Shown in pieces: positions 50,799 to 61,402 of a DNA stretch of 64,000 nucleotides (its first letter is position 1; each line of letters begins with the position of its first letter). Where the stretch lies: NCBI GenBank assembly GCA_050184225.1, contig JBFXAN010000012.1, forward strand, positions 1 through 64,000, in the 5' to 3' direction. A program made the translations under genes and the position numbers. Source of the stretch: Dehalococcoidia bacterium. Lineage in GTDB: Bacteria > Chloroflexota > Dehalococcoidia > CAUJGQ01. The notes beneath the pieces were generated by a model. It was not told where the DNA came from. It searched no databases and saw nothing but the letters and a program-made list of their open reading frames with translations.

Positions 50799-51695
50799 TC
50801 ATGCGCCGTCGAGGAGTAGCCGGTCGAGCAGCGCCTCCAAGTCTTCGTCGCCGTAGAAGCGGATGACGATGCGACCGCCTTTGCGCGATCGTTCGAGGCG
50901 TACCTGAGTGCCGAGTGAGCGTTGCAGGCGGTCTTCCAGGTCGGCGAGGAGCGGGTCGGTGGGGCGCTTCGGCGTGGTCTCGTGCGGCGGCCGTTCGTCC
51001 GTCTCTGCTGCGCCACGCAACCGGCGCACGAGTTCTTCGGTCTGGCGGACGGTGAGGTCGCGGGCGATCACCTCCTGCCAGGCGTGGAGGCGGCGGTCGT
51101 CGTCGGGGAGGCCGAGGAGGGCGCGGGCGTGGCCTTCGCTGATCTCGCCGGCGGCAAGGCTTGCACGGATCGCCTCGGGGAGACTTTGCAGTCGTAGGGT
51201 GTTGGCGACGGCGGTGCGGCTCTTGCCCGCCCGCTCGGCGACGGCTTCCTGTGTCAGTCCAAACTCGTCGATCAACTGGCGGTAGGCGTCAGCCTCCTCC
51301 AGGGGATTGAGATCGGCGCGCTGGATGTTTTCGATCAGGGCGAGTTCGAGCAGATCCTGATCCGTCGCTTCACGGACCACAACCGGCACCCGGGTCAGTC
51401 CGACGGCACGCGCCGCGTGGAGCCGCCGTTCCCCGGCGATCAACTGGTAGCTGACACCGCCGCCATCTGTGATGCGACGCGAGACGACGAGCGGCTGAAT
51501 GATGCCATGGGTCCGCACGCTTTCGGCCAGTTCATCCAGCGCGGCGGGTTGGATCTGGGCGCGTGGTTGGCGGGGATTGGGGGCGATCAGGTCGATATCG
51601 ACCTCGTCAGCGCCGCCGGTCTGCGGCAGCAACGAACCGAGGCCGCGCCCCAGGCCGAAGCGCGACGAGCGGGGTGTGGAATTCTCATTGGTCAT
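50799..51695 (-). CDS. parB: Chromosome partitioning protein ParB/Spo0J
   Basis: GLGRGL, PNPRQPR, GIIQP, IAGERR, ENIQRADLNPLEEA and GHARALL motifs. Confidence 0.95.
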   Translation of the reverse strand: MTNENSTPRSSRFGLGRGLGSLLPQTGGADEVDIDLIAPNPRQPRAQIQPAALDELAESVRTHGIIQPLVVSRRITDGGGVSYQLIAGERRLHAARAVGLTRVPVVVREATDQDLLELALIENIQRADLNPLEEADAYRQLIDEFGLTQEAVAERAGKSRTAVANTLRLQSLPEAIRASLAAGEISEGHARALLGLPDDDRRLHAWQEVIARDLTVRQTEELVRRLRGAAETDERPPHETTPKRPTDPLLADLEDRLQRSLGTQVRLERSRKGGRIVIRFYGDEDLEALLDRLLLDGA

Positions 51696-51977
51696 GGGTC
51701 ATCTGGTCCTTGCGCTGCAACCGGCGATCGGGAAGGGGTGGTGAGTTTTATCAGCGTCAGTAGACCGGATCGCGCGGGCCGCGACAATCTTCGATGAGGG
51801 ACAGCGGTGAAAACGGGATGAACTGAGCCGAACGGCTCAGTTCTCATGTCAGCGTGGCATAGGAACGCCGTGCGGGCAACGGACGAATGGGCGATGGTGC
51901 GCGGGCGGTGGATGCCGCATGCTGACGGTCGGTCGTCCTTGACAGATGGACGACAACCCTCGATGGAGGCTCCTCAC

Positions 51978-52649
51978 ATGATACGCCATGCACCACTCAG
52001 CCGCGTGCTCTGGATCGGCGGCGCGCAGTGGTCGGGCAAGACATCGGTGGCCCAGCTGCTAGCCGCGCGCCATCCACTGCTGCTCTATGTCTACGATTAC
52101 CACGACGCACGCTCCCATGCCGATCGCTCCTGCGCCGATCCCGAACGGTTCCCGCATAGCCATGCCTTTCTCGCAGCGCTGGACCGCAACCCGGACGACG
52201 TATGGGTGACGCCATCGCCGGATGTAATGGCGGCGGACGCACGGCATAGCTTCCGCGAGCGGTTCGCGATGGTATGCGAAGACCTCGCGGCGCTGCCGGC
52301 GGGGGTGCCGGTGCTGGCCGAGGGTTGGGGACTGCGGCCAGACCTGATCGCGCCGCTGCTGGATGACCGGAGACGCGCCGTCTTCCTCGTGCCGACCGAA
52401 GACTTTCGAGAGCGGCAGGTGCGGACGTTGCCTCGTGCCGGACGGCTCCAAACGCCGGGCGTCTCTGATCCTGATCGGGCACAGCGCAACCGCGTCGAAC
52501 GTGACCGGCTGCTCGCGCGGGATGTCGTGGAGTCGGCAACCCGGCTCGGACTGCGTGTGATCACGGTGGACGGCAGTCAATCGGTGGCGGAGGTCGCCGC
52601 GCTGGTTGAGGCGCAGTTCCGACCCTTCCTGCCCCCGTGGCGCTACTGA
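51978..52649 (+). CDS. P-loop kinase-like hypothetical protein
   Basis: LWIGGAQWSGKT Walker A-like motif, LAEG and ITVDGS; GGAGG RBS. Confidence 0.75.
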   Translation: MIRHAPLSRVLWIGGAQWSGKTSVAQLLAARHPLLLYVYDYHDARSHADRSCADPERFPHSHAFLAALDRNPDDVWVTPSPDVMAADARHSFRERFAMVCEDLAALPAGVPVLAEGWGLRPDLIAPLLDDRRRAVFLVPTEDFRERQVRTLPRAGRLQTPGVSDPDRAQRNRVERDRLLARDVVESATRLGLRVITVDGSQSVAEVAALVEAQFRPFLPPWRY

Positions 52650-52660
52650 GGAGCGCCGGC

Positions 52661-53443
52661 TCAGAGATGGCGTCTGCTCGCGACCGAGCGATGTTCCTGT
52701 GCGATCACTTCGTCGGCGAGGGAGCGGTAGGCGCGGGCGCCGGGGGAGGAGGGGTCGTAGTCGAGGATCGAGCGGCCATGGCTCGGGGCCTCGCTGAGGC
52801 GGACGGAGCGGGGAACGACGGTGCGGTAGGTTTGGCTGAAGTGGCGGCGCACTTCGGTGACCACATCCTGGGCGAGGTTGGTGCGGGCGTCGAACATGGT
52901 CATGACCAGCCCGCGCAGGCGCAGCGATGGGTTCAACCGCTGGCGCACCAGTTCGAGCGTCCGTGCCAGGTGGCTCAGACCCTCCAGCGCCAGATACTCG
53001 CACTGCACCGGCACGATCACCTCGTCGGCGGCGGTGAGCGCGTTCACGGTCAGCAGGCCGAGCGAGGGCGGACAGTCGACGAGGACATAGTCGAAGTGGC
53101 CGCGCACGTCGGCCAGCGCCCGCCGCAGGCGTTGCTCGCGGTCCTCGACCGCCACCAGCTCGATCTCGGCGCCGGCCAGGTCACGCGAGGCGGGCAGGAG
53201 TAGGACCCCGGCGGCGGTCGTTTCGTCGATCACATCCGTGGCCGGCACACCGCCGAGCAGCACCTCATAGGTATCGCGTCCGGGTTGCGCCTCGCGGCCG
53301 AGGGCGCTGCTCGCGTTCGCCTGGGCGTCCATATCGACGACGAGCACGGACCGTCCGCCGGCCGCGAGCGCGGCGCCCAGGTTGACCGTGGTGGTGGTCT
53401 TGCCGACGCCGCCCTTCTGATACGCGAACGCGATGACGGTCAT
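52661..53443 (-). CDS. parA: Chromosome partitioning ATPase ParA/Soj
   Basis: QKGGVGKTTT, DMDAQAN, DCPPSLG, PVQCEY.ALEG and PRSVRLSEAPSHG motifs. Confidence 0.95.
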   Translation of the reverse strand: MTVIAFAYQKGGVGKTTTTVNLGAALAAGGRSVLVVDMDAQANASSALGREAQPGRDTYEVLLGGVPATDVIDETTAAGVLLLPASRDLAGAEIELVAVEDREQRLRRALADVRGHFDYVLVDCPPSLGLLTVNALTAADEVIVPVQCEYLALEGLSHLARTLELVRQRLNPSLRLRGLVMTMFDARTNLAQDVVTEVRRHFSQTYRTVVPRSVRLSEAPSHGRSILDYDPSSPGARAYRSLADEVIAQEHRSVASRRHL

Positions 53444-54357
53444 CGGCGGGTTCCGTCCGGCAGCATCTGGGGATCGACCTCACGAGCGTGCCCGACCGCG
53501 CGCAGCCGTACGAGCGTGTCCTCCCGGGTCGGCGTCAGCGGGCCGCGCGTCTCCACGGATAGGCCGGCGACGGCGGCAGCGAATCGAGCGGCGTCGATCG
53601 GATCCGCCCCCTCGTCCTGGGCGACCATGAACGCCGCCGCGAAACTATCGCCGGCGCCGGTTGGGTCGATCTCGTCGACCGGCGCCGCGGGCACGGACCA
53701 CCAACGGCCTTCCATGTGGATCTTCGCGCCACGCCGCCCGGCCGTCAGCACGACCACGGGCACCGTTGTCAGCCATGCCGGCGGCACCGCACGTCCGGCC
53801 GCGCCGGCGAGGTCCTCTTCCGAGAGAAAGAGCACGCGGGTGCGGCGGAGCACCGGCAGGGCGTCCCACGCATCCGGCGCCATCAGCGTCACACGGCCGT
53901 CTGCATCCGTCCGGCGCAGAAAGCCCTGGGCGCAGACACCCACGCTCCCGCTGAACCGGGCCGCAAGCGCCGGCGTCACCTCATGGTAGACCGGCCCGAG
54001 CAGCACGACGCGGGCATCCGCCCACGCGGTGGGCAGCGTCTCCGGCGGGATCGCCGTTCCCACCGCTGGGAGATACTGAACGCGATGGCCGTCCGCCGTG
54101 TAGATGTTCTCGAACGATGTCGCCTCCGGCGCGTCCGCCCGTGCCACGGCGATCTCCGCGGCGAGACCGGCCGTCACGACATCGGCGGGCGCCGCCGTGA
54201 CGACGCCGACCCGCCGGCCCAGGCCCCGTGCCACTGCCGCCGCGTAGACAGCGGTGCCGCCTGACACCCAACCGTCCGGCGTTTGGTCACGGGTCACATT
54301 CCCGCAGACGACGAAGTCAGCCGCGGCGTGCGGGGTGCGACGTGCTGAGTTCGCCAT
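53440..54357 (-). CDS. PfkB-family carbohydrate kinase
   Basis: GG.A.YAA and DPTGAGDSFAA motifs. Confidence 0.9.
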   Translation of the reverse strand: MANSARRTPHAAADFVVCGNVTRDQTPDGWVSGGTAVYAAAVARGLGRRVGVVTAAPADVVTAGLAAEIAVARADAPEATSFENIYTADGHRVQYLPAVGTAIPPETLPTAWADARVVLLGPVYHEVTPALAARFSGSVGVCAQGFLRRTDADGRVTLMAPDAWDALPVLRRTRVLFLSEEDLAGAAGRAVPPAWLTTVPVVVLTAGRRGAKIHMEGRWWSVPAAPVDEIDPTGAGDSFAAAFMVAQDEGADPIDAARFAAAVAGLSVETRGPLTPTREDTLVRLRAVGHAREVDPQMLPDGTRR

Positions 54358-54391
54358 ATTGGTCCCTGTTCCCGCTTGATTATCCCACACT

Positions 54392-55258
54392 CTATCCGTC
54401 GCTCCGCAACCGCCGCCGGATTCGCTCCAGCCAGGAGCGCCGCCCGCTATCGGCCAGCGGCGGCCCGTTCAGCGCCAGTTGCGCCGGGCGGTCGATCGCG
54501 GTGAGCAAGCCGGCGCCGAGGCTGCGAGCGATCTCGCTTGCGGCGATGCCGTCGCGCACCGAGGCGGCAGCCATCTGCACCATCGCCGGATGGTGGGTGA
54601 CGAACCCGCTGGCGCGCCGGCCGTGGCTGAGGTCGGCGCCGAGCGCCTCCTCGTCATCGACGACGACGAGCAGCCACTGCTCGTGCGCCGGGCCGTCGAT
54701 GTCATGGCGAAAGAGCGCGCCCTCACAGCTGCCGCATGGCGCGGGACAGGCGCGCTGGCACAGGGTCGTCACTAGCACGCCACGCTCAACCGCATTCCGG
54801 ACCGCGTCCGCCAGCGGCAGTGCGGTCGAGGGCGTCACGGCGAGCACCACCTGTGCGGTCGCGGACTCCACCATGGCCCGTGCCCGTGCCAGCAGCTCGG
54901 CTTGATCGGCGACCGCCGCGGTGACCGGCTCCGTCACATCAGCGCCCAGCCGTTGCAGGGAGCCGGCGGCGCCGTCCAGACGTTCACGGTAACCGCGGGC
55001 GAGCCGCTCCAGCAACTCCGCCGCCGGACGAGCGGCATAGCGGGAGCCGCGGCCGGCGGCGAAGGCGGTCACGGCGCCACGCTCTTCCAGCCGTTGCAAC
55101 GCCGGATAGACGTTCGGCCGTGGCACGCCCGAGCGCTTGCTCACCTCATAGCCGCTCAGCGGCCCATCCGCGAGCAGCGTCACATACACCCGCGCCTCGT
55201 AATCGCCGAACCCGAGGGTGGTGAGCTGTCCGACCGCGTCCTGTACGGAGTTGTTCAT
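54392..55258 (-). CDS. TrmB-family transcriptional regulator with a Cys4 motif
   Basis: LGFGDYEARVY..LL...SGYEVSKRSGVPRPNVY wHTH; CQRACPAPCGSC in the effector domain. Confidence 0.88.
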   Translation of the reverse strand: MNNSVQDAVGQLTTLGFGDYEARVYVTLLADGPLSGYEVSKRSGVPRPNVYPALQRLEERGAVTAFAAGRGSRYAARPAAELLERLARGYRERLDGAAGSLQRLGADVTEPVTAAVADQAELLARARAMVESATAQVVLAVTPSTALPLADAVRNAVERGVLVTTLCQRACPAPCGSCEGALFRHDIDGPAHEQWLLVVVDDEEALGADLSHGRRASGFVTHHPAMVQMAAASVRDGIAASEIARSLGAGLLTAIDRPAQLALNGPPLADSGRRSWLERIRRRLRSDG

Positions 55259-55266
55259 ACAACTAC
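55247..55266. promoter_or_regulatory. Palindromic operator, copy overlapping the TrmB start codon
   Basis: GGAGTTGT-TCAT-ACAACTAC. Confidence 0.7.
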
Positions 55267-55379
55267 TGTCCTGGGCAGTGCGACCGCCGTCAAGCATCGC
55301 GGGCCGTAGCCCGACCTGTCTCTTTGGACAGGTGGTGGACTGGCCGCCTTGCCGGCGCACGCTGCTGAGCCTGTCGTAA

Positions 55380-55403
55380 TAGTAGTTGTGTATATAACTA
55401 CTA
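55380..55403. promoter_or_regulatory. Palindromic operator upstream of the divergent operon
   Basis: TAGTAGTTGT-GTAT-ATAACTACTA; the outer 8 bp form a perfect inverted repeat in an AT-rich island. Confidence 0.75.
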
Positions 55404-55424
55404 GTGATTCGCAAGGAGGCGCTC

Positions 55425-55688
55425 ATGAGACGTACCGCAGTAGCAGCCGGCATGCCCTCCCAGCGGGGGCGGAGGCCACGCCGCATCCATCAGGGGATAC
55501 GGGCATCGCTCATTGCGAGCGGCATCGTCCTCCTGCTGTCCGGCGCGCTGGTCGACATCGGCCACCACGCCGGCCTGCCGGGCCTCACTGCTGAGGCGCT
55601 GGGCGAGGCCGGACACATGGTGACGCTGGCCGGCATGGTGCTCACCGCGACGGGGGTGGCGCTGGTCGCGGCGCTTCGACGGCGGTAG
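55425..55688 (+). CDS. Small 2-TM membrane protein with D-x3-H...H motif
   Basis: AAGGAGG RBS; LVDIGHH and EAGHMVTL. Confidence 0.75.
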   Translation: MRRTAVAAGMPSQRGRRPRRIHQGIRASLIASGIVLLLSGALVDIGHHAGLPGLTAEALGEAGHMVTLAGMVLTATGVALVAALRRR

Positions 55689-55732
55689 CGGGCAGACCCG
55701 CGCCGCCGATCACACGTTTTGGAGGTTGATCG

Positions 55733-56056
55733 ATGCCGTACGGAAACTTCATCAACAATGTCCCGCCCGCCATCTTCCTGCTCATCCATCTGACCGCGTT
55801 CCTCGTCGGCGTGTTCCTCGCGTATCGCTCGTTCGAAGCAGACGCGACGCTCGCCGGCGTGGGGTTCCTGCTCTTCGCGCTCGCCGAGATCTGCTACATG
55901 ACCTACCACCTCGATTGGACCGTGTTCCTCTTCGCGCACACGATCTCCGAGGTGCTCGATCTGGCCGCATTCGTGCTCATCTTCGCCGGCGCCGTCCAGC
56001 GTGTGGCGGCTCGCGGGCAGACCGAAGGGCGGCCGGCGCGGGTGACACAGCCATGA
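55733..56056 (+). CDS. Small 3-TM membrane protein with His/Glu residues in the helices
   Basis: GGAGG RBS; LIHL, AEICYMTYHL and FAHTISE; ATGA-coupled to the cupredoxin gene. Confidence 0.8.
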   Translation: MPYGNFINNVPPAIFLLIHLTAFLVGVFLAYRSFEADATLAGVGFLLFALAEICYMTYHLDWTVFLFAHTISEVLDLAAFVLIFAGAVQRVAARGQTEGRPARVTQP

Positions 56057-56445
56057 CGAAGCACCGTGTTCTCCAGACAGCGCTGGCCGCCGGCATCGCC
56101 CTGATCGTGGTGGTGATCGTCGGGTGCGCGGGCGATGCAACCGGGTCCGGCGCGCCGGTCGAGACGAACGAGGTGACGATGCCGCGAAGTTACCGGTTCG
56201 CGCCGGAGACGATTCAGGTCACCGCCGGCACGACGGTCACCTTCCGCAACGACGACAACTTCACGCACTCGGTCAAGCTGCGCGACGGCAGCGAGCCGGA
56301 CCACCGGGTTTCACCCGGCGAGAGCGTCCAGATCACGTTCGCGCAGCCGGGCACCTTCAACTACGAATGCAGCTTGCACCCGCGGGACATGCGCGGCACG
56401 GTCATCGTCACCGGCGCGCCGCCCGCGGCGGACTACGGAGGATAG
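56053..56445 (+). CDS. Plastocyanin/azurin-like type-1 copper lipoprotein (cupredoxin)
   Basis: Lipobox IVGC; F.PE.I.V..GTTVTF.N...HSV and YECSLHPRDM supply the H, C, H, M ligands. Confidence 0.9.
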   Translation: MTKHRVLQTALAAGIALIVVVIVGCAGDATGSGAPVETNEVTMPRSYRFAPETIQVTAGTTVTFRNDDNFTHSVKLRDGSEPDHRVSPGESVQITFAQPGTFNYECSLHPRDMRGTVIVTGAPPAADYGG

Positions 56446-56450
56446 AAGCC

Positions 56451-57158
56451 ATGTCGCATCGTCACTTCATCATTCCGGCCGAACCAACCCGACAGCAGCG
56501 ACGCCTGCCGCTTGTTCCGATCGCGCTCCTGCTGGCGCTCCTCACCCTCGTCGCGCTCGGCGGGACGCGTGTCACGGCCCATCAATCGCACACGAACGGC
56601 GCGACAGAGGAGGCCAAGGAGCGGCGCGTTGCCTTCCATGACACGATGCGCCGGTTGTGGGAGGACCATATCGTCTGGACGCGCATGTATCTGGTGAGCG
56701 CGATCGCCGAGTTGCCGGACACCCAGGCGACAGCGGAGCGATTGTTGCGCAACCAGACCGACATCGGTGACGCGATCAGACCCTACTACGGGGATGCCGC
56801 CGGCGATCAACTGACCGCGCTCCTGCGCGACCATATCCTGATCGCCGTCGATCTCGTGGCTGCCGCGAAGGCAGGAGACACGGCGCGGCTTGCGGGCGAG
56901 CAATCGCGATGGGAGGCCAACGCCGACGCGATCGGCGCCTTCCTCAATGACACCAACCCGCGTCACTGGCCGCGCGACGAGATGGCGGCGATGATGCGCA
57001 CCCACCTTGAGGTCACCGCTGCCGAGGCGCTCGCCCGGCTGCGCGGCGACTGGGCCGCCGATATCGCTGCCTACGACGCCGTGCACGAGCAGATCCTGCG
57101 CATGGCCGACATGCTCAGCAGCGGCATCATCGAGCAGTTCCCGGAGCACTTCCGCTAG
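56451..57158 (+). CDS. Secreted helical His/Met-rich protein of unknown function
   Basis: Signal-like segment; MRRLWEDH..WTR, LLRNQ.DIG.AI.PYYG, LRDH, MMRTH and MADMLSSGI. Confidence 0.8.
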   Translation: MSHRHFIIPAEPTRQQRRLPLVPIALLLALLTLVALGGTRVTAHQSHTNGATEEAKERRVAFHDTMRRLWEDHIVWTRMYLVSAIAELPDTQATAERLLRNQTDIGDAIRPYYGDAAGDQLTALLRDHILIAVDLVAAAKAGDTARLAGEQSRWEANADAIGAFLNDTNPRHWPRDEMAAMMRTHLEVTAAEALARLRGDWAADIAAYDAVHEQILRMADMLSSGIIEQFPEHFR

Positions 57159-57187
57159 CGTCCGGGGCGGCTGAAGGGAGAAATGAG

Positions 57188-58414
57188 ATGCAAATCTACA
57201 AGTACGTCATCCTCGGCGGCGGTATGGTCGCCGGCTACGCGGCCCGGGAACTGGTCGAAGGCGGGCTTCGCTCGGGGGATTTGGCGATCATCTCCGCCGA
57301 CGGGGCGCTACCGTATGAGCGGCCGCCGCTGTCGAAGGGATTCCTGGCCGGCAAAGAGGAGGAGACGAGCATCTTCATCAACGATCGTGCGTTTTATGAC
57401 GCGCACGGCATCACGGTCCACCTCGGCACCGCGATCGACGCGGTCGACCTCGGGCAGCAGCGCCTGCGCCGGCAAGCAGGCGAGGAGATCGGGTACGATA
57501 AGCTGCTGATCGCCACTGGGGCCAACGTCCGCAGGCTCGCCGTGCCGGGGGCGACGCTCGACGGCATTCTCTATCTGCGCTCGCTGCACGACGCGAAGCG
57601 GATCCTCGCCCAGGCCGAGGGCGCGCGAAGGGCGGTCGTGATCGGCGCGGGCTTCATCGGTATGGAGGTGGCGTCGGTGCTGGCGCAGCGGGGAATCGAG
57701 ACGACGATCGTCTATCCAGGCGAGCGCGTCTGGCAGCGCTTCTTCACACCGGAGATATCGGCGTTCTTCCAGCGCTACTATGAAGGTCGGGGCGTGTCCC
57801 TGGTGGCAGGAGAACGCGTCGTGTCGTTCGCGGGACAGGAGCGCGTCTCCGGCGCGATCACTGCATCCGGGCGGCAGTTGCCCGCCGACCTCATCGTCGC
57901 GGGAATCGGAGTGGTCCCGGCGACGGACGTCTTTGAGGGGACCGGATTACAGCTCGACAACGGCATCGTCGTCAATGAATACCTGGAGACGAGCGAGCCG
58001 GACGTGTATGCCGCCGGCGACGTTGCCAGCTACTACGATGTGATCTTCGACAAGCAGCGGCGGGTGGAGCACTGGGACAACGCCGTCGAGCAGGGCCGGC
58101 ATGCCGCGCGGCTGCTGATGGGAGACCGCGTGCCGTTCGTCCACGTTCCGTATTTCTTCTCCGATGTCTTCGACCTCTCGTACGAATTCTGGGGGGACAC
58201 CGCCGTCGCCAGCGATGTCGTCTATCGCGGTGACGTCGCGGGTGGCTGTTTCAGCGCCTGGTGGTTGAAGGATAGCCGGGTAGTCGCGGCCTTCGTCATG
58301 AACCGTCCGGATGAAGAGCGCGAGCTGGCGCCAACGTGGATCAGCGAGCGCCATCTGGTTTCTGGACGGGACGTACGAGACGACCGCGTGCCGCTGCACG
58401 CGAACGGCGCGTGA
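57188..58414 (+). CDS. FAD/NAD(P)-dependent oxidoreductase (ferredoxin reductase/MDAR-like)
   Basis: GGGMVAG, PYERPPLSK, ATGA, GAGFIGME, YAAGDVA, RVEHW and PYFFSD motifs. Confidence 0.93.
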   Translation: MQIYKYVILGGGMVAGYAARELVEGGLRSGDLAIISADGALPYERPPLSKGFLAGKEEETSIFINDRAFYDAHGITVHLGTAIDAVDLGQQRLRRQAGEEIGYDKLLIATGANVRRLAVPGATLDGILYLRSLHDAKRILAQAEGARRAVVIGAGFIGMEVASVLAQRGIETTIVYPGERVWQRFFTPEISAFFQRYYEGRGVSLVAGERVVSFAGQERVSGAITASGRQLPADLIVAGIGVVPATDVFEGTGLQLDNGIVVNEYLETSEPDVYAAGDVASYYDVIFDKQRRVEHWDNAVEQGRHAARLLMGDRVPFVHVPYFFSDVFDLSYEFWGDTAVASDVVYRGDVAGGCFSAWWLKDSRVVAAFVMNRPDEERELAPTWISERHLVSGRDVRDDRVPLHANGA

Positions 58415-58443
58415 GGCTCCTGGCCGGCACTGTGAGGCACAAA

Positions 58444-59157
58444 GTGCACGATGAACATGCACCGACCGCGATCCTGTTCGACGTCGATGGCTGCCTGATC
58501 TCAACCGGTGGGGCAGGCAGCCGCGCGTGGCGGCGCGCCTTCGAGGTACTGCACGGCGTCCCGGCCGATATCGGGGAGTTCACCGAGGCGGGCATGACCG
58601 ACCCGGACGTGGGGAGGCTCACGTTCACGCGGGTGATCGGCCGGGAGCCGGCCGATCGCGAGATGGCCCGGCTGCTCGCGGCCTATCTCGAAGGTCTGGC
58701 CGCCGAAGTCGCGCGGTCGCCGGACTATCGGGTGATGCCGGGAGTAACGGCGTTGCTGCCCCGGCTGGTGGGGGCCGGCATCCTCCTGGGCGTGGTCAGC
58801 GGCGCGTTGGAGGCGGCGGCCCACATCAAGCTCGCCCGCGCTGGTCTGAACCGGTTCTTCTGCTTCGGCGGGTATGGGTCGGATTCTCGCGATCGGGGGG
58901 AACTCACGCGCCTCGCGGTCGCGCGTGCCGGCGGGATCCACGGTCACGCGCTGGATCCCGGGCGGGTGCTCGTCGTCGGCGACACGCCGCGGGATATCGA
59001 GGCGGCGCACGCCGCGGGCGCGATCGCGGTTGGTGTGGCCACCGGCAGGTACTCGGTCGAGGCGCTGCGGGCAGCGGGAGCAGACCACGCGCTGCCGACG
59101 CTTGAACATCCCTTACCCGGCGTGCCGGACCGGTCGGATAAGGGAGCGACGGCATGA
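58444..59157 (+). CDS. HAD-family hydrolase (phosphatase)
   Basis: LFDVDGCL, GMTD and VGDTPRDI motifs; start GTG 58444 or 58411. Confidence 0.88.
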   Translation: MHDEHAPTAILFDVDGCLISTGGAGSRAWRRAFEVLHGVPADIGEFTEAGMTDPDVGRLTFTRVIGREPADREMARLLAAYLEGLAAEVARSPDYRVMPGVTALLPRLVGAGILLGVVSGALEAAAHIKLARAGLNRFFCFGGYGSDSRDRGELTRLAVARAGGIHGHALDPGRVLVVGDTPRDIEAAHAAGAIAVGVATGRYSVEALRAAGADHALPTLEHPLPGVPDRSDKGATA

Positions 59158-59354
59158 CCAGGGGAGGCTGCACGAAAGGATCGGGGAGCGAGTCTCAGAC
59201 GCCCCAGAGAGACGGGAACTCTCCGGGCATTGGGCACGGGCCGAAGTCCGCTCACGGGGCTTGAACGCGCGGCTACACTGGTGATGACGTGCGGCCCCGC
59301 TGAGCATCCGGGTCAGAGATTCACCCCGATTGAATGAGCCGAAGGAGGCCGGCA

Positions 59355-60980
59355 GTGGACCGGTTACAGCAGTTGCTCGGTGAAGGTCAGGCGGTCTGGC
59401 TGGACTACACGAAGCGGTCATTTACGGCGTCGGGCGAGCTGGCCCGGCTGGTGCAGCGGGGCGTACGCGGCGTCACCAGCAATCCCACGATCTTTGAGAA
59501 GGCGATCATCGGGAGCACAGAGTATGACGATGTCGTGCAACGGCTGTCGCTGGCGGGTTTGGACGCGGTCGCGATCTACGAGGCGCTGACGGTCGAGGAC
59601 ATCGCCGCGGCGGCCGATGTGCTGCGCCCCGTGTACGATGCCACACACGGCGCGGACGGCTTCGTCAGCCTGGAGGTCAGCCCGACGCTGGCGCACGACA
59701 CGGCGGGCACGGTGGCGGCGGCCACACGACTATTCGCGGCGCTGGACCGGCCCAACGTGATGATCAAGATCCCCGGCACGGCGGCGGGCGTCCCTGCGAT
59801 CGAGGAGTCGATCGCGGCCGGCATCAATATTAACGTGACGCTGCTCTTCTCCCTGGCGAACTACGAAGCGATCGCGTTGGCCTACATCAAGGGGCTGGAG
59901 CGCCGCGTCGCTGCGGGCGAGGACATCGCCCACCTTCATTCGGTGGCGTCGTTCTTCGTCAGCCGCGTCGATACCGCGGTGGACAAGGCGTTGGCATCTG
60001 TCAATGGCGCCGCCGCGCTTCTCGGTACGGTAGCGGTCGCCAACGCGAAGGTCGCGTACGCCCGCTATCAACAACTCTTCAGCGGGCCACGCTGGACCGC
60101 GCTGGCAGCGAAGGGCGCGCGCGTGCAGCGTCCGCTGTGGGCCAGCACCAGCACCAAAAACAAGGCGTATTCGGACGTGATGTACGTGGACCAACTGATT
60201 GGCCCAGACACGATCAACACGATGCCCGTCGCGACGCTCGAAGCATTCATCGATCACGGCACGATCGCGCCGACGCTAACGCGCGATCTGGATGGTGCTC
60301 GCGCCGTGCTCGCGTCGCTCGCGGCGATGGGTGTCGACCTGAACGCGGTCACGGCGGGGTTGCTTGAGGAGGGGGTCGAGTCGTTCACGCAATCGTTCGT
60401 GACGCTGCTGGCGGGGATCGAGGCCAAGCGCGCGCAGTACGTCACGACGATGCCGCGTGATCCTGTGACACAAAAGGCGGTCGCCGGCATGGCGTCGGAG
60501 GAGGTTCCTCTCACGATGGACGGGATCGCCGGCAGTAACAACCCGGAGTACATCATTCCTGTGAAGGTCTATCGCGGCGACGACCGCATCACGATCGCGG
60601 CGCCGATGCCGGGCATGGAGGTCAGCGGCATTGTCGTCACCGTGATGGCGGAGCATCATGTCGTCCTAGACGGCAAACGGGGCGGACTCTACCCGGGCGA
60701 GACCGAATCCCTCATGGATGAGTGGAATCCCGGTCCCTATCATCGCGATCTGGAGGTGCCGGATTCCGTCGACGGTGAACGCGCGAATGTCACCTATAGC
60801 AACGGCGTCCTGGTCGTGAGCCTGCCGATCGTCGAGACCACCCGCGAGGCCCGCCTCACCCTGACCGCGCTCAGCGCGACTCACGGGGAACGGTTCGGCG
60901 AGAGCGGCCACCCAGACGACCAACCTGCCGCCGAGGTGAGCGACCCTTCGGCCCGGACTCATCACCACCCGGTGGGATAG
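59355..60980 (+). CDS. tal: Transaldolase with an in-frame C-terminal Hsp20/alpha-crystallin domain
   Basis: WLD, TSNPTIF, SLEVSP, MIKIP, NVTLLFS, SFFVSRVD and LWAST motifs, then PVKVY....I.APMPG...ANVTYSNGVLVVSLP. AAGGAGG RBS before GTG 59355. Confidence 0.88.
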   Translation: MDRLQQLLGEGQAVWLDYTKRSFTASGELARLVQRGVRGVTSNPTIFEKAIIGSTEYDDVVQRLSLAGLDAVAIYEALTVEDIAAAADVLRPVYDATHGADGFVSLEVSPTLAHDTAGTVAAATRLFAALDRPNVMIKIPGTAAGVPAIEESIAAGININVTLLFSLANYEAIALAYIKGLERRVAAGEDIAHLHSVASFFVSRVDTAVDKALASVNGAAALLGTVAVANAKVAYARYQQLFSGPRWTALAAKGARVQRPLWASTSTKNKAYSDVMYVDQLIGPDTINTMPVATLEAFIDHGTIAPTLTRDLDGARAVLASLAAMGVDLNAVTAGLLEEGVESFTQSFVTLLAGIEAKRAQYVTTMPRDPVTQKAVAGMASEEVPLTMDGIAGSNNPEYIIPVKVYRGDDRITIAAPMPGMEVSGIVVTVMAEHHVVLDGKRGGLYPGETESLMDEWNPGPYHRDLEVPDSVDGERANVTYSNGVLVVSLPIVETTREARLTLTALSATHGERFGESGHPDDQPAAEVSDPSARTHHHPVG

Positions 60981-60994
60981 GAGCGGACGACGCG

Positions 60995-61402
60995 ATGCCG
61001 GTCTTCGTGAAACGCACCTATGAACCGGCCGCTGATGGAGACGGTGAACGGTTTCTCGTGGACCGGCTGTGGCCGCGCGGGGTGAGCAAGGCGAGGGCGG
61101 CGCTGACCGACTGGCTCAAAGACCTCGCCCCGAGCACCGAACTGCGCCAATGGTTCGGGCACGAGCCAACGCGCTGGGCCGAGTTCCAGCAGCGGTACAT
61201 CGCGGAACTGGACCGGCCCGAGACGAAGGCGCTCGTGCAGATGCTTGCGGACAAGGCGCGGACCGGGCCGGTGACGCTGGTCTATGCGGCGCGGGACACG
61301 GAACACAATGAGGCGGTGGTCCTCCAGCGTCTGATCGAGCAGCGGCACCATCCCACCGAACGCGCGGATAGCGAGCGGCAGGACACCGCGTCCCACGGCT
61401 AG
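60995..61402 (+). CDS. DUF488 (YeaO-like) protein
   Basis: KRTYEP...DGERFLVDRLWPRGVSK, APSTELRQWF and HNEAVVL motifs. Confidence 0.92.
   Translation: MPVFVKRTYEPAADGDGERFLVDRLWPRGVSKARAALTDWLKDLAPSTELRQWFGHEPTRWAEFQQRYIAELDRPETKALVQMLADKARTGPVTLVYAARDTEHNEAVVLQRLIEQRHHPTERADSERQDTASHG

Follow-up and report, generated by a model that had tools for sequence, protein, structure and literature searches.

A compact cassette of two small membrane proteins and a type-1 copper lipoprotein, found beside cysteine-bearing regulators mainly in Chloroflexota

The locus

This study concerns a divergent gene cluster at positions 54392-59157 of a 64,000-nucleotide (nt) stretch of DNA, hereafter the window, from a Dehalococcoidia bacterium (GCA_050184225.1, contig JBFXAN010000012.1). 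A TrmB-family regulator of 288 amino acids (aa) on the minus strand (54392-55258) faces six genes on the plus strand. The first three of these encode an 87-aa protein with two predicted transmembrane helices (2-TM; 55425-55688), a 107-aa protein with three (3-TM; 55733-56056) and a 130-aa cupredoxin lipoprotein with a type-1 copper site (56053-56445); an exported helical-bundle protein, a flavoprotein reductase and a HAD-family hydrolase follow. The region has a G+C content of ~67%. The regulator likely starts at the ATG at 55258, rather than with the 364-aa long open reading frame (ORF) that reaches 55486, and an AGGAGG lies upstream of the 2-TM gene. Counted in order from the 2-TM gene, the intergenic gaps are 44, -4, 5, 29 and ~44 nt, with the cupredoxin start overlapping the 3-TM stop through a shared ATGA. 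A first-pass annotation of this DNA had described a tightly packed, divergent operon and proposed a seven-gene regulon for copper handling or transmembrane electron transfer. ORF translations and Pfam/NCBIfam searches recover every one of its genes where it placed them, and both its description of the sequence and the tight packing are borne out. A promoter and terminator scan of the operon returned 0 promoter-like sites and 1 terminator-like site, within the HAD gene, which is no more than shuffled sequences give.

A conserved three-gene cassette

The conserved unit is smaller than the seven-gene proposal and consists of the 2-TM, 3-TM and type-1 copper lipoprotein genes. An initial search of 60 relatives found the 3-TM protein in five, four of which share the same neighbours: a TrmB homologue, contig permitting, and then the 2-TM, 3-TM and cupredoxin genes. 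The helical protein, reductase and HAD genes are absent from those four loci. A species-level scan with the 3-TM alignment, covering one genome per species across 185,579 species, gave 151 loci with a relative. The locus counts below refer to the best 80 of these 151 loci, or to those 80 plus the window where the denominator is 81, and co-occurrence in the 80 was scored with the window proteins as tblastn queries. By our own count of record titles, 74/80 name Chloroflexota (Limnocylindria, 'Chloroflexia', Dehalococcoidia, Thermomicrobiales and Anaerolineae) and six name other phyla; all 80 loci come from metagenome-assembled genomes. One of them, L069, belongs to a genome flagged as unpublished; besides its place among the 80 it contributes one row to each of the A3, A4 and A7 alignments, and it is the sole basis of no claim. 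All-against-all ORF clustering of the neighbours was noisy, with shadow frames in the GC-rich DNA, and was used for candidates only.

The cupredoxin gene lies immediately downstream of the 3-TM gene, on the same strand, in 76/80 loci. Three of the four loci without an adjacent cupredoxin (L041, L060 and L084) end at most ~160 nt from the 3-TM gene. In the fourth, L091, a Rieske-type ferredoxin gene (~1150-1467, read by eye) follows the 3-TM gene in the cupredoxin's place, and a cupredoxin is encoded 5.8 kb away. The 2-TM protein, too divergent for tblastn, was found in only two loci by that method. A small ORF of the same design sits directly upstream of the 3-TM gene in every locus with room for it, and a 2-TM hidden Markov model, built from the same set of loci on which it was scored, matches in 78/81 loci and lies directly upstream of the 3-TM gene in 76/81. 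The limits of all three genes could be set in 58 loci. There the 2-TM gene shares 14 nt with the 3-TM gene in 34 loci and 1 nt in ten; the 3-TM gene in turn shares 4 nt with the cupredoxin gene in 36 loci and 1 nt in eight (44/58 overlapping). The 2-TM, 3-TM and cupredoxin genes are translationally coupled. Because start and stop overlap in 44/58 loci and the genes are adjacent in 76/80, the 3-TM protein and the cupredoxin probably share a function, and the arrangement is more than chance, since its residues and gene order recur in 80 other loci. Apparent 3-TM-cupredoxin fusions, which surfaced as long hits in a search of representative sequences, were rejected: on read-out they proved to be frameshifted or chimeric gene calls.

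As the first-pass annotation had supposed, the regulator, 2-TM, 3-TM and cupredoxin genes co-occur across related loci. The wider regulon did not survive: the helical protein gene is adjacent in 17/80 other loci, a reductase gene is present in 4/80, and a HAD relative is present in 2/80, at a distance of ~3.6 kb and on the opposite strand. Further out, the neighbour clusters of the 80 loci hold ordinary housekeeping genes that are shared within clades only. No Pfam or NCBIfam family covers the cassette, and no description of it was found in literature searches on TrmB, cupredoxins and copper or on copper-resistance lipoproteins of Chloroflexi, in keeping with the earlier failure to match the locus to a named pathway. 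The cassette is a real, compact and widespread module that lacks a description in the libraries and literature searched.

The two membrane proteins

Both ligand patterns first noticed in the window, D-x3-H...H in the 2-TM protein (D44, H48 and H64) and H/E/H/H/E in the 3-TM protein (H19, E52, H59, H69 and E73), prove invariant or nearly so in 53 sequences. In the 2-TM protein, D44 is kept in 51 sequences, with Glu in the other two, H48 in 46, and both H64 and M71 in all 53. Between D44 and H64 the chain differs in length from one sequence to the next and holds a mean of 3.9 His (range 2-7). The 3-TM gene is the most conserved of the cassette: the 52 other sequences are 56-69% identical to the window protein, about half of the positions are conserved at 90% or more, and Y55, M56, T57, Y58 and T63 join the five residues named above as invariant. 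AlphaFold2 (AF2) predicts three helices for the 3-TM protein, at residues 12-35, 39-59 and 62-98, with a predicted local distance difference test score (pLDDT) of 87.9. Apart from one chance-level row, neither membrane protein has a Pfam match at E values up to 10, and neither has an NCBIfam match. The 3-TM protein matches only 176 representatives among 1.84 billion, and its best structural hit (VIA Z 8.4, root-mean-square deviation (rmsd) 5.3, 81 aligned residues) falls within the background for helical models.

The distribution of charge gives a predicted orientation. The N and C termini of the 2-TM protein are basic, with 2.8 and 5.1 Lys/Arg in the two flanks, and the D44-H64 loop is acidic and His-bearing, with 0.25 Lys/Arg, 3.0 Asp/Glu and 3.9 His. 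The 3-TM N-terminus has 0 Lys/Arg and its tail 2.4. Under the positive-inside rule applied to these counts, we infer that the 3-TM protein has its N-terminus outside and its tail inside, and that the 2-TM protein has both ends inside and its His-rich loop outside. All conserved polar residues of both proteins would then sit within the membrane's outer half and face the lipoprotein's side. A complex prediction from the 2-TM and 3-TM alignments (A3 and A4) scored 0.12 and 0.16 against a mark of 0.32 and was used neither for nor against an interaction.

The cupredoxin lipoprotein

The third cassette protein matches two Pfam families above their cut-offs: PF13473, Cupredoxin_1 (47 bits against 27; E 2.7e-12), and PF00127, Copper-bind (40.8 bits against 21.2; E 3e-10). 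The lipobox cysteine C25 and the ligands H72, C106, H109 and M113 are invariant in 53/53 sequences, which upholds the original call of a type-1 copper lipoprotein with a complete His/Cys/His/Met set. The lipoprotein assignment was read from the sequence by its lipobox, VGC at residues 23-25 in the window. Outside these positions the family is looser, with only 40-53% identity between the window protein and the 52 other aligned sequences. The nearest solved relatives are a nitrite-reductase-tethered cupredoxin (E 3.5e-23), amicyanin and plastocyanin.

Three types of cysteine-bearing regulator

The window regulator matches the TrmB helix-turn-helix family PF01978 over residues 12-74 (65.1 bits against a cut-off of 25.6) and carries CQRACPAPCGSC, a C-x3-C-x3-C-x2-C (Cys4) motif, in its C-terminal domain. 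C-x3-C-x2-C, the spacing of the last three cysteines, is that of [4Fe-4S] sites in radical SAM enzymes. Against the NCBIfam equivalogs for the sugar regulators TrmB, TrmBL1 and TrmBL2, the protein scores 50.6, 41.5, 35.1 and 29.4 bits where the cut-offs are 600, 500, 530 and 650, respectively; these alignments span only about the first 170 residues, and no sugar-binding-domain match was found. In 8/8 cassette-linked TrmB proteins, whose identity to the window TrmB is 35-56%, the Cys4 motif is invariant. A class-wide search placed TrmB relatives in 11/401 genomes, at 17 places, and the motif is present in 14/16 full-length proteins; the expectation that homologues would keep these cysteines is supported. 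Eight of the 14 Cys4-TrmB places lie with the cassette, two lie directly upstream of a helical-protein gene, and four have other contexts. The two TrmB paralogues without the motif come from one genome, each preceding a secreted acidic repeat protein, and show that the TrmB fold does not need the cysteines. Both lie at 3780-8010 of L112 (G075:C76), where the protein that follows each is very acidic and made up of repeats that include EEHMVTEF.

A cysteine-bearing regulator is adjacent to the cassette in 68/81 loci: TrmB in eight, and two SufR-like types, termed RegA and RegB here, in 56 and four. The RegA gene is divergent from the 2-TM gene in 56/81 loci. The proposal of a Cys4-TrmB as cassette regulator therefore holds in 8/81 loci, a minority, with a SufR-like cysteine regulator filling the position in 60/81. 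RegA, aligned from 32 sequences, is a winged-helix protein with a weak HTH_20 match below the Pfam cut-off, an invariant GRP (G79, R80 and P81) and invariant C174, C188, N191 and C219/C220; the pattern C-x13-C-x29-31-CC is found in 53/56 RegA. RegB has GKP at the position of RegA's GRP. It matches the SufR model TIGR02702 (E 4.6e-16) with 59.2 and 56.0 bits, below the cut-off of 178.8, and RegA has no TIGR02702 match at E 0.01. The two types are related by hhalign (probability 96%, E 3.6e-9).

The SufR-like COG2345 signature, as described in a preprint, comprises a GRP AT-hook, three Cys and a fourth ligand for [4Fe-4S] that may be Glu, His, Asn, Asp or Cys (10.64898/2025.12.26.696629). Each of these features is present in RegA: a winged helix with GRP, and three Cys with a ligand-capable residue, N191, three positions after the second Cys. 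The same preprint names ArnR, a member of this family, as controlling nitrate respiration (10.64898/2025.12.26.696629). In the genome of the window, a single copy of the 3-TM gene is present and RegA has no match, and TrmB therefore appears to stand in for RegA there. All three regulator types carry four-cysteine sites, two of them with a SufR-like signature, which points to putative Fe-S or redox sensing over dedicated copper sensing; the 'Fe-S-sensing' element of the first-pass annotation thus gains support from the SufR/COG2345-like regulator adjacent in 60/81 loci.

Operator and promoter elements

A perfect 24-bp palindrome, TAGTAGTT-N8-AACTACTA (55380-55403), lies in front of the 2-TM gene, its end 22 nt from the start codon, and is a candidate TrmB operator. 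It is unique in the 6.8-Mb genome, even allowing three mismatches. A weaker second copy (55245-55268) covers the TrmB start codon; its 19-nt core (55249-55267) is 84% identical to the matching 19 nt of the main site, and its left arm is degenerate. In six other cassette loci GTAGTT-N8-AACTAC is found a short way upstream of the TrmB gene, and there, by eye, it overlaps the -10 of a TTGACA-N17-TATAGT-type promoter. The site occurs in 29/117 loci examined, many of which are re-fetches of the same places, and in 0/88 others. All 29 carry a TrmB homologue, although the gene in L108 is cut short before the Cys4 motif. Some TrmB loci are without the exact site: a half site is present in G007, and no site in G105, in one G099 paralogue or in either G075 paralogue. 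The pairing of palindrome with regulator suggests that TrmB may act on the operon as its cognate binding protein, and the copy over its own start suggests autoregulation.

A different arrangement is seen in RegA-type loci (e.g., L018, 5649-5730). The RegA/2-TM intergenic regions share TTGACA-N17-TGTATCACTAG, with the 2-TM ATG within a few bases, and TCTATCAC lies close to the RegA start. That these elements sit so near both starts suggests leaderless transcripts for the RegA and 2-TM genes, in place of the AGGAGG seen in the window operon.

Accessory and neighbouring genes

The fourth plus-strand gene (56451-57158) encodes the exported helical-bundle protein of 235 aa, with an N-terminal hydrophobic segment and an all-helix AF2 model (pLDDT 85.6). 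Its 17 adjacent relatives lie downstream of the cupredoxin gene in 13 loci and upstream of the 3-TM gene in four. The earlier label 'His/Met-rich' was overstated, as the protein has ~11 His and 8 Met in 235 residues; what stands is the presence of conserved His and Met. Across the family E71, H73, H128, H185 and E192 are invariant, H212 is nearly so, and M181 and M218 are invariant or nearly so. The family has at least 3500 homologues, many of them tandem duplications of ~400 aa, about twice the window protein's length, and the commonest phyla among its atlas rows are Actinomycetota, Bacillota and Chloroflexota. It has no Pfam or NCBIfam match even at loose thresholds, and its profile found nothing below E 0.1 among solved structures. 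Fold searches stayed within the background for helical models (best Foldseek E 0.08; best VIA Z 9.5, rmsd 4.5, 143 aligned residues). A 'glycosyltransferase' label carried by one or two database entries for family members was rejected for want of a supporting family; the other atlas clusters are labelled 'hypothetical protein'. In two genomes the helical protein gene directly follows a Cys4-TrmB, with no cassette within the stretches fetched. This placement probably puts the helical protein in the same regulatory circle as Cys4-TrmB.

The next gene (57188-58414) encodes a 408-aa FAD/NAD(P)H flavoprotein of the ferredoxin-reductase type (Pyr_redox_2, E 2.3e-64; Reductase_C, E 2e-10), whose best NCBIfam rows are below their equivalog cut-offs. 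It is an occasional accessory: two of its four other occurrences (L018 and L030) directly follow the helical protein, as in the window, and the other two are in L083, after an ORF with a Rieske domain, and in L065. This L083 ORF (~1697-2290), read by eye as a combined CDGSH-type and Rieske-type iron-sulfur protein, lies between the cupredoxin and ferredoxin-reductase genes. Rieske-domain proteins are encoded nearby in six loci. The HAD-family hydrolase gene (58459-59157; Pfam HAD families) is probably not part of the conserved module.

A possible link to copper nitrite reductase is a lead: NirK scores above its family cut-off in 5/50 carrier genomes, a search that covered carriers alone, with no background set. 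A NirK-like gene lies within 3/80 loci, all of one clade. In this clade (L022, 6746-11929; also L018, L029, L045 and L075) the cassette is followed by genes for DoxX, a receiver-type protein, a NirK-like multicopper protein, a sensor kinase and a NarL-type response regulator, and an Rrf2 regulator gene is divergent from the NirK-like gene, 2-8 kb from the cassette. The DoxX, Cu-oxidase and Rrf2 labels come from Pfam, and those of the kinase, receiver and NarL-type protein were given by eye.

Directly behind the window TrmB gene, on the same strand, lie ParB-like and ParA-like ORFs, named by eye from their translations, and a PfkB-family kinase gene assigned by Pfam (50799-54390, minus strand); the end of the TrmB stop codon and the kinase stop are 1 nt apart. 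On the other side, 59334-60980 (plus strand) encodes a transaldolase (TAL_FSA, E 2.7e-80) fused to a C-terminal Hsp20/alpha-crystallin domain (E 1.9e-06), and transaldolase relatives are found at most ~2.5 kb from the 3-TM gene in L034, L069 and L091. A DUF488 protein follows (PF22752, E 1.9e-39; 60995-61402, plus strand). It is 53% identical to the product of the gene immediately after the cupredoxin gene in the relative G017 (L008, 3755-4141, minus strand), and because of this direct succession the helical-reductase-HAD-transaldolase block of the window may have been inserted after the cupredoxin gene and ahead of the DUF488 gene.

Possible function of the cassette

The reading we place first, with a probability of about 38%, is that the membrane pair captures copper and loads the cupredoxin. 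Cys4-TrmB would bind the palindrome before the operon and the weaker copy over its own start, and its cysteine site would hold an Fe-S cluster or otherwise sense redox state, such that the module might switch with oxygen, with nitrosative or oxidative stress, or with Fe-S status. The 2-TM and 3-TM proteins would together form an outward-facing copper site that captures copper, which would pass to the cupredoxin anchored on the same outer side of the membrane, and the loaded cupredoxin would serve as a small carrier of electrons. Optional additions would be the helical protein and flavin reductase, with the HAD gene a bystander. Copper at the outer membrane face is suggested by the predicted outward His/Asp/Glu/Met sites, the His-rich capture loop and the canonical type-1 copper protein, taken together.

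Several observations weigh against copper loading. The 3-TM protein, at 56-69% identity against 40-53% for the cupredoxin, is more tightly conserved than expected for a copper-delivery helper and fits a catalytic or electron-transfer core better. Conserved polar residues span only the predicted outer half of the membrane, with no complete transport path visible. In the neighbour clusters that were inspected across the 80 loci, no classical gene of copper homeostasis (CopA, CopZ, CsoR or a multicopper oxidase cluster) was conspicuous. At the level of regulation, the Cys4 site could hold structural zinc or Cu(I) instead of an Fe-S cluster.

The first of these points leads to the strongest alternative, which we place close behind, though well below even odds: a membrane redox module in which the 2-TM and 3-TM proteins would build a small metal centre embedded in the membrane. 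Electrons would pass between this centre and the cupredoxin, drawn from quinol or, across the membrane, from a cytoplasmic reductase, and would go on to a terminal enzyme such as an oxidase or a copper nitrite reductase. Besides the extreme conservation of the 3-TM protein, such a role would suit a cupredoxin whose nearest solved relatives are electron carriers, the nitrite-reductase-tethered domain foremost; a ferredoxin-reductase-type flavoprotein that comes after the helical protein in the window, L018 and L030 and is also present in L083 and L065; the Rieske-domain proteins near six loci; and the one clade with a NirK-like gene and an Rrf2 regulator close by. SufR-like relatives such as ArnR are also reported to govern respiratory genes. 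The reductase, however, is present in only 5/81 loci and NirK exceeds its cut-off in only 5/50 carrier genomes. The conserved residues occupy the outer half alone, with no conserved haem-type His pair near the inner face and no visible trans-membrane route, and the variable, His-rich 2-TM loop suggests metal capture, as in other metal transporters, more than electron transfer. A bolder version of the same idea, which we would bet heavily against, casts the 2-TM/3-TM pair as a minimal redox centre, with copper or two metals, set in the outer leaflet; with the blue copper lipoprotein it would constitute a new membrane oxidoreductase. It might serve as a route from quinol to cupredoxin that needs no iron and that Fe-S-sensing regulators would turn on upon failure of iron-rich respiratory complexes. 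The ligand pattern of this hypothetical centre would echo the CuC site of PmoC.

Cysteine clusters are typical of Cu(I) sensors in CopY- and CsoR-type regulators, and the cysteine-cluster regulators of the cassette, along with the His-rich outward loop of the 2-TM protein, would also suit a copper-stress response, in which the regulators sense Cu(I) and the cupredoxin and its membrane partners bind or oxidise excess copper outside the cell. A precedent is CopI, a cupredoxin-like copper-tolerance protein (PMC13308877), for which such a role has been proposed. We regard detoxification as quite doubtful. The cassette cupredoxin scores 12.5 bits against a cut-off of 280 for the CopI model NF051440 and lacks a His/Met-rich insert; the majority regulator has a SufR-like [4Fe-4S] signature rather than a known copper-sensor fold; and in the neighbour clusters inspected neither a copper-export ATPase gene nor a chaperone gene was conspicuous.

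The identity of the metal admits an improbable further reading, in which the membrane pair acts on a metal other than copper (Ni, Co, Zn or Fe), or on a small ligand, and its link to the cupredoxin is regulatory only. Neither His/Asp/Glu sites nor His-rich loops are peculiar to copper. The 3-TM/cupredoxin overlaps and adjacency described above argue instead for a shared function, and an invariant Met stands beside His in both membrane proteins, an arrangement common in Cu(I) sites. That the genes are unrelated neighbours with chance residue patterns is very hard to credit: small hydrophobic ORFs in GC-rich DNA are easily over-read, but order, overlaps and residues recur in 80 loci of many lineages, and so does the pairing of operator with regulator.

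Significance and relation to known systems

Three protein families that lack a family or specific fold match, the 2-TM, 3-TM and helical proteins, are brought to light by this locus, and the first two are tightly linked with a blue copper protein in 151 or more species-level genomes, largely from uncultured soil and groundwater Chloroflexota. If the membrane pair does load copper, it would explain the metallation of an exported blue copper protein in some of these bacteria; if it exchanges electrons instead, it would be a new small respiratory component. The presence of a SufR-like regulator and a Cys4-TrmB beside the same cassette in different genomes is a regulator swap, one that bears on whether bacterial TrmB proteins can serve as Fe-S or metal sensors.

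Among known regulators, those of the SufR/ArnR family (COG2345) resemble RegA and RegB most closely. Common to both are a winged helix, a GRP AT-hook, a pair of Cys separated by 12-13 residues with a ligand-capable residue after them, and one more Cys further on; like ArnR, RegA and RegB lie beside genes other than suf. The differences are equally plain: RegB reaches 59 bits where the SufR model asks for 178.8, RegA has no match, cluster binding is putative, and the window has a Cys4-TrmB instead. With the TrmB family, the window regulator shares the N-terminal winged helix. OxsR is a TrmB-family protein reported to act as a cysteine-based redox sensor (PMC9426492). Unlike the window regulator, which has a second domain with a compact four-cysteine motif, OxsR is a single-domain protein that uses one Cys. 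The sugar-sensing TrmB and TrmBL1 differ in that the window regulator is far below their equivalog cut-offs.

The cassette cupredoxin shares its fold family and the His-Cys-His-Met type-1 set with amicyanin, plastocyanin and the cupredoxin domains tethered to nitrite reductases. Unlike these, it is lipid-anchored and encoded with two small membrane proteins, and no dehydrogenase or cytochrome partner is conserved beside it. The 2-TM protein recalls the CuC site of PmoC/AmoC, whose ligands have been confirmed as Asp156, His160 and His173 (PMC12576850): its D-x3-H...H lies on a helical hairpin, predicted to be near the outer face. The likeness is one of motif only, as the 2-TM protein has two helices against many and no match to AmoC or any other Pfam family at E values up to 10. 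Finally, CopC/CopD, CopI and CupA offer a comparable plan, either an extracytoplasmic copper protein with a membrane protein or a membrane-anchored cupredoxin-like protein. The cassette described here departs from that plan in having membrane proteins outside any matched family and a copper site of the canonical type-1 kind.

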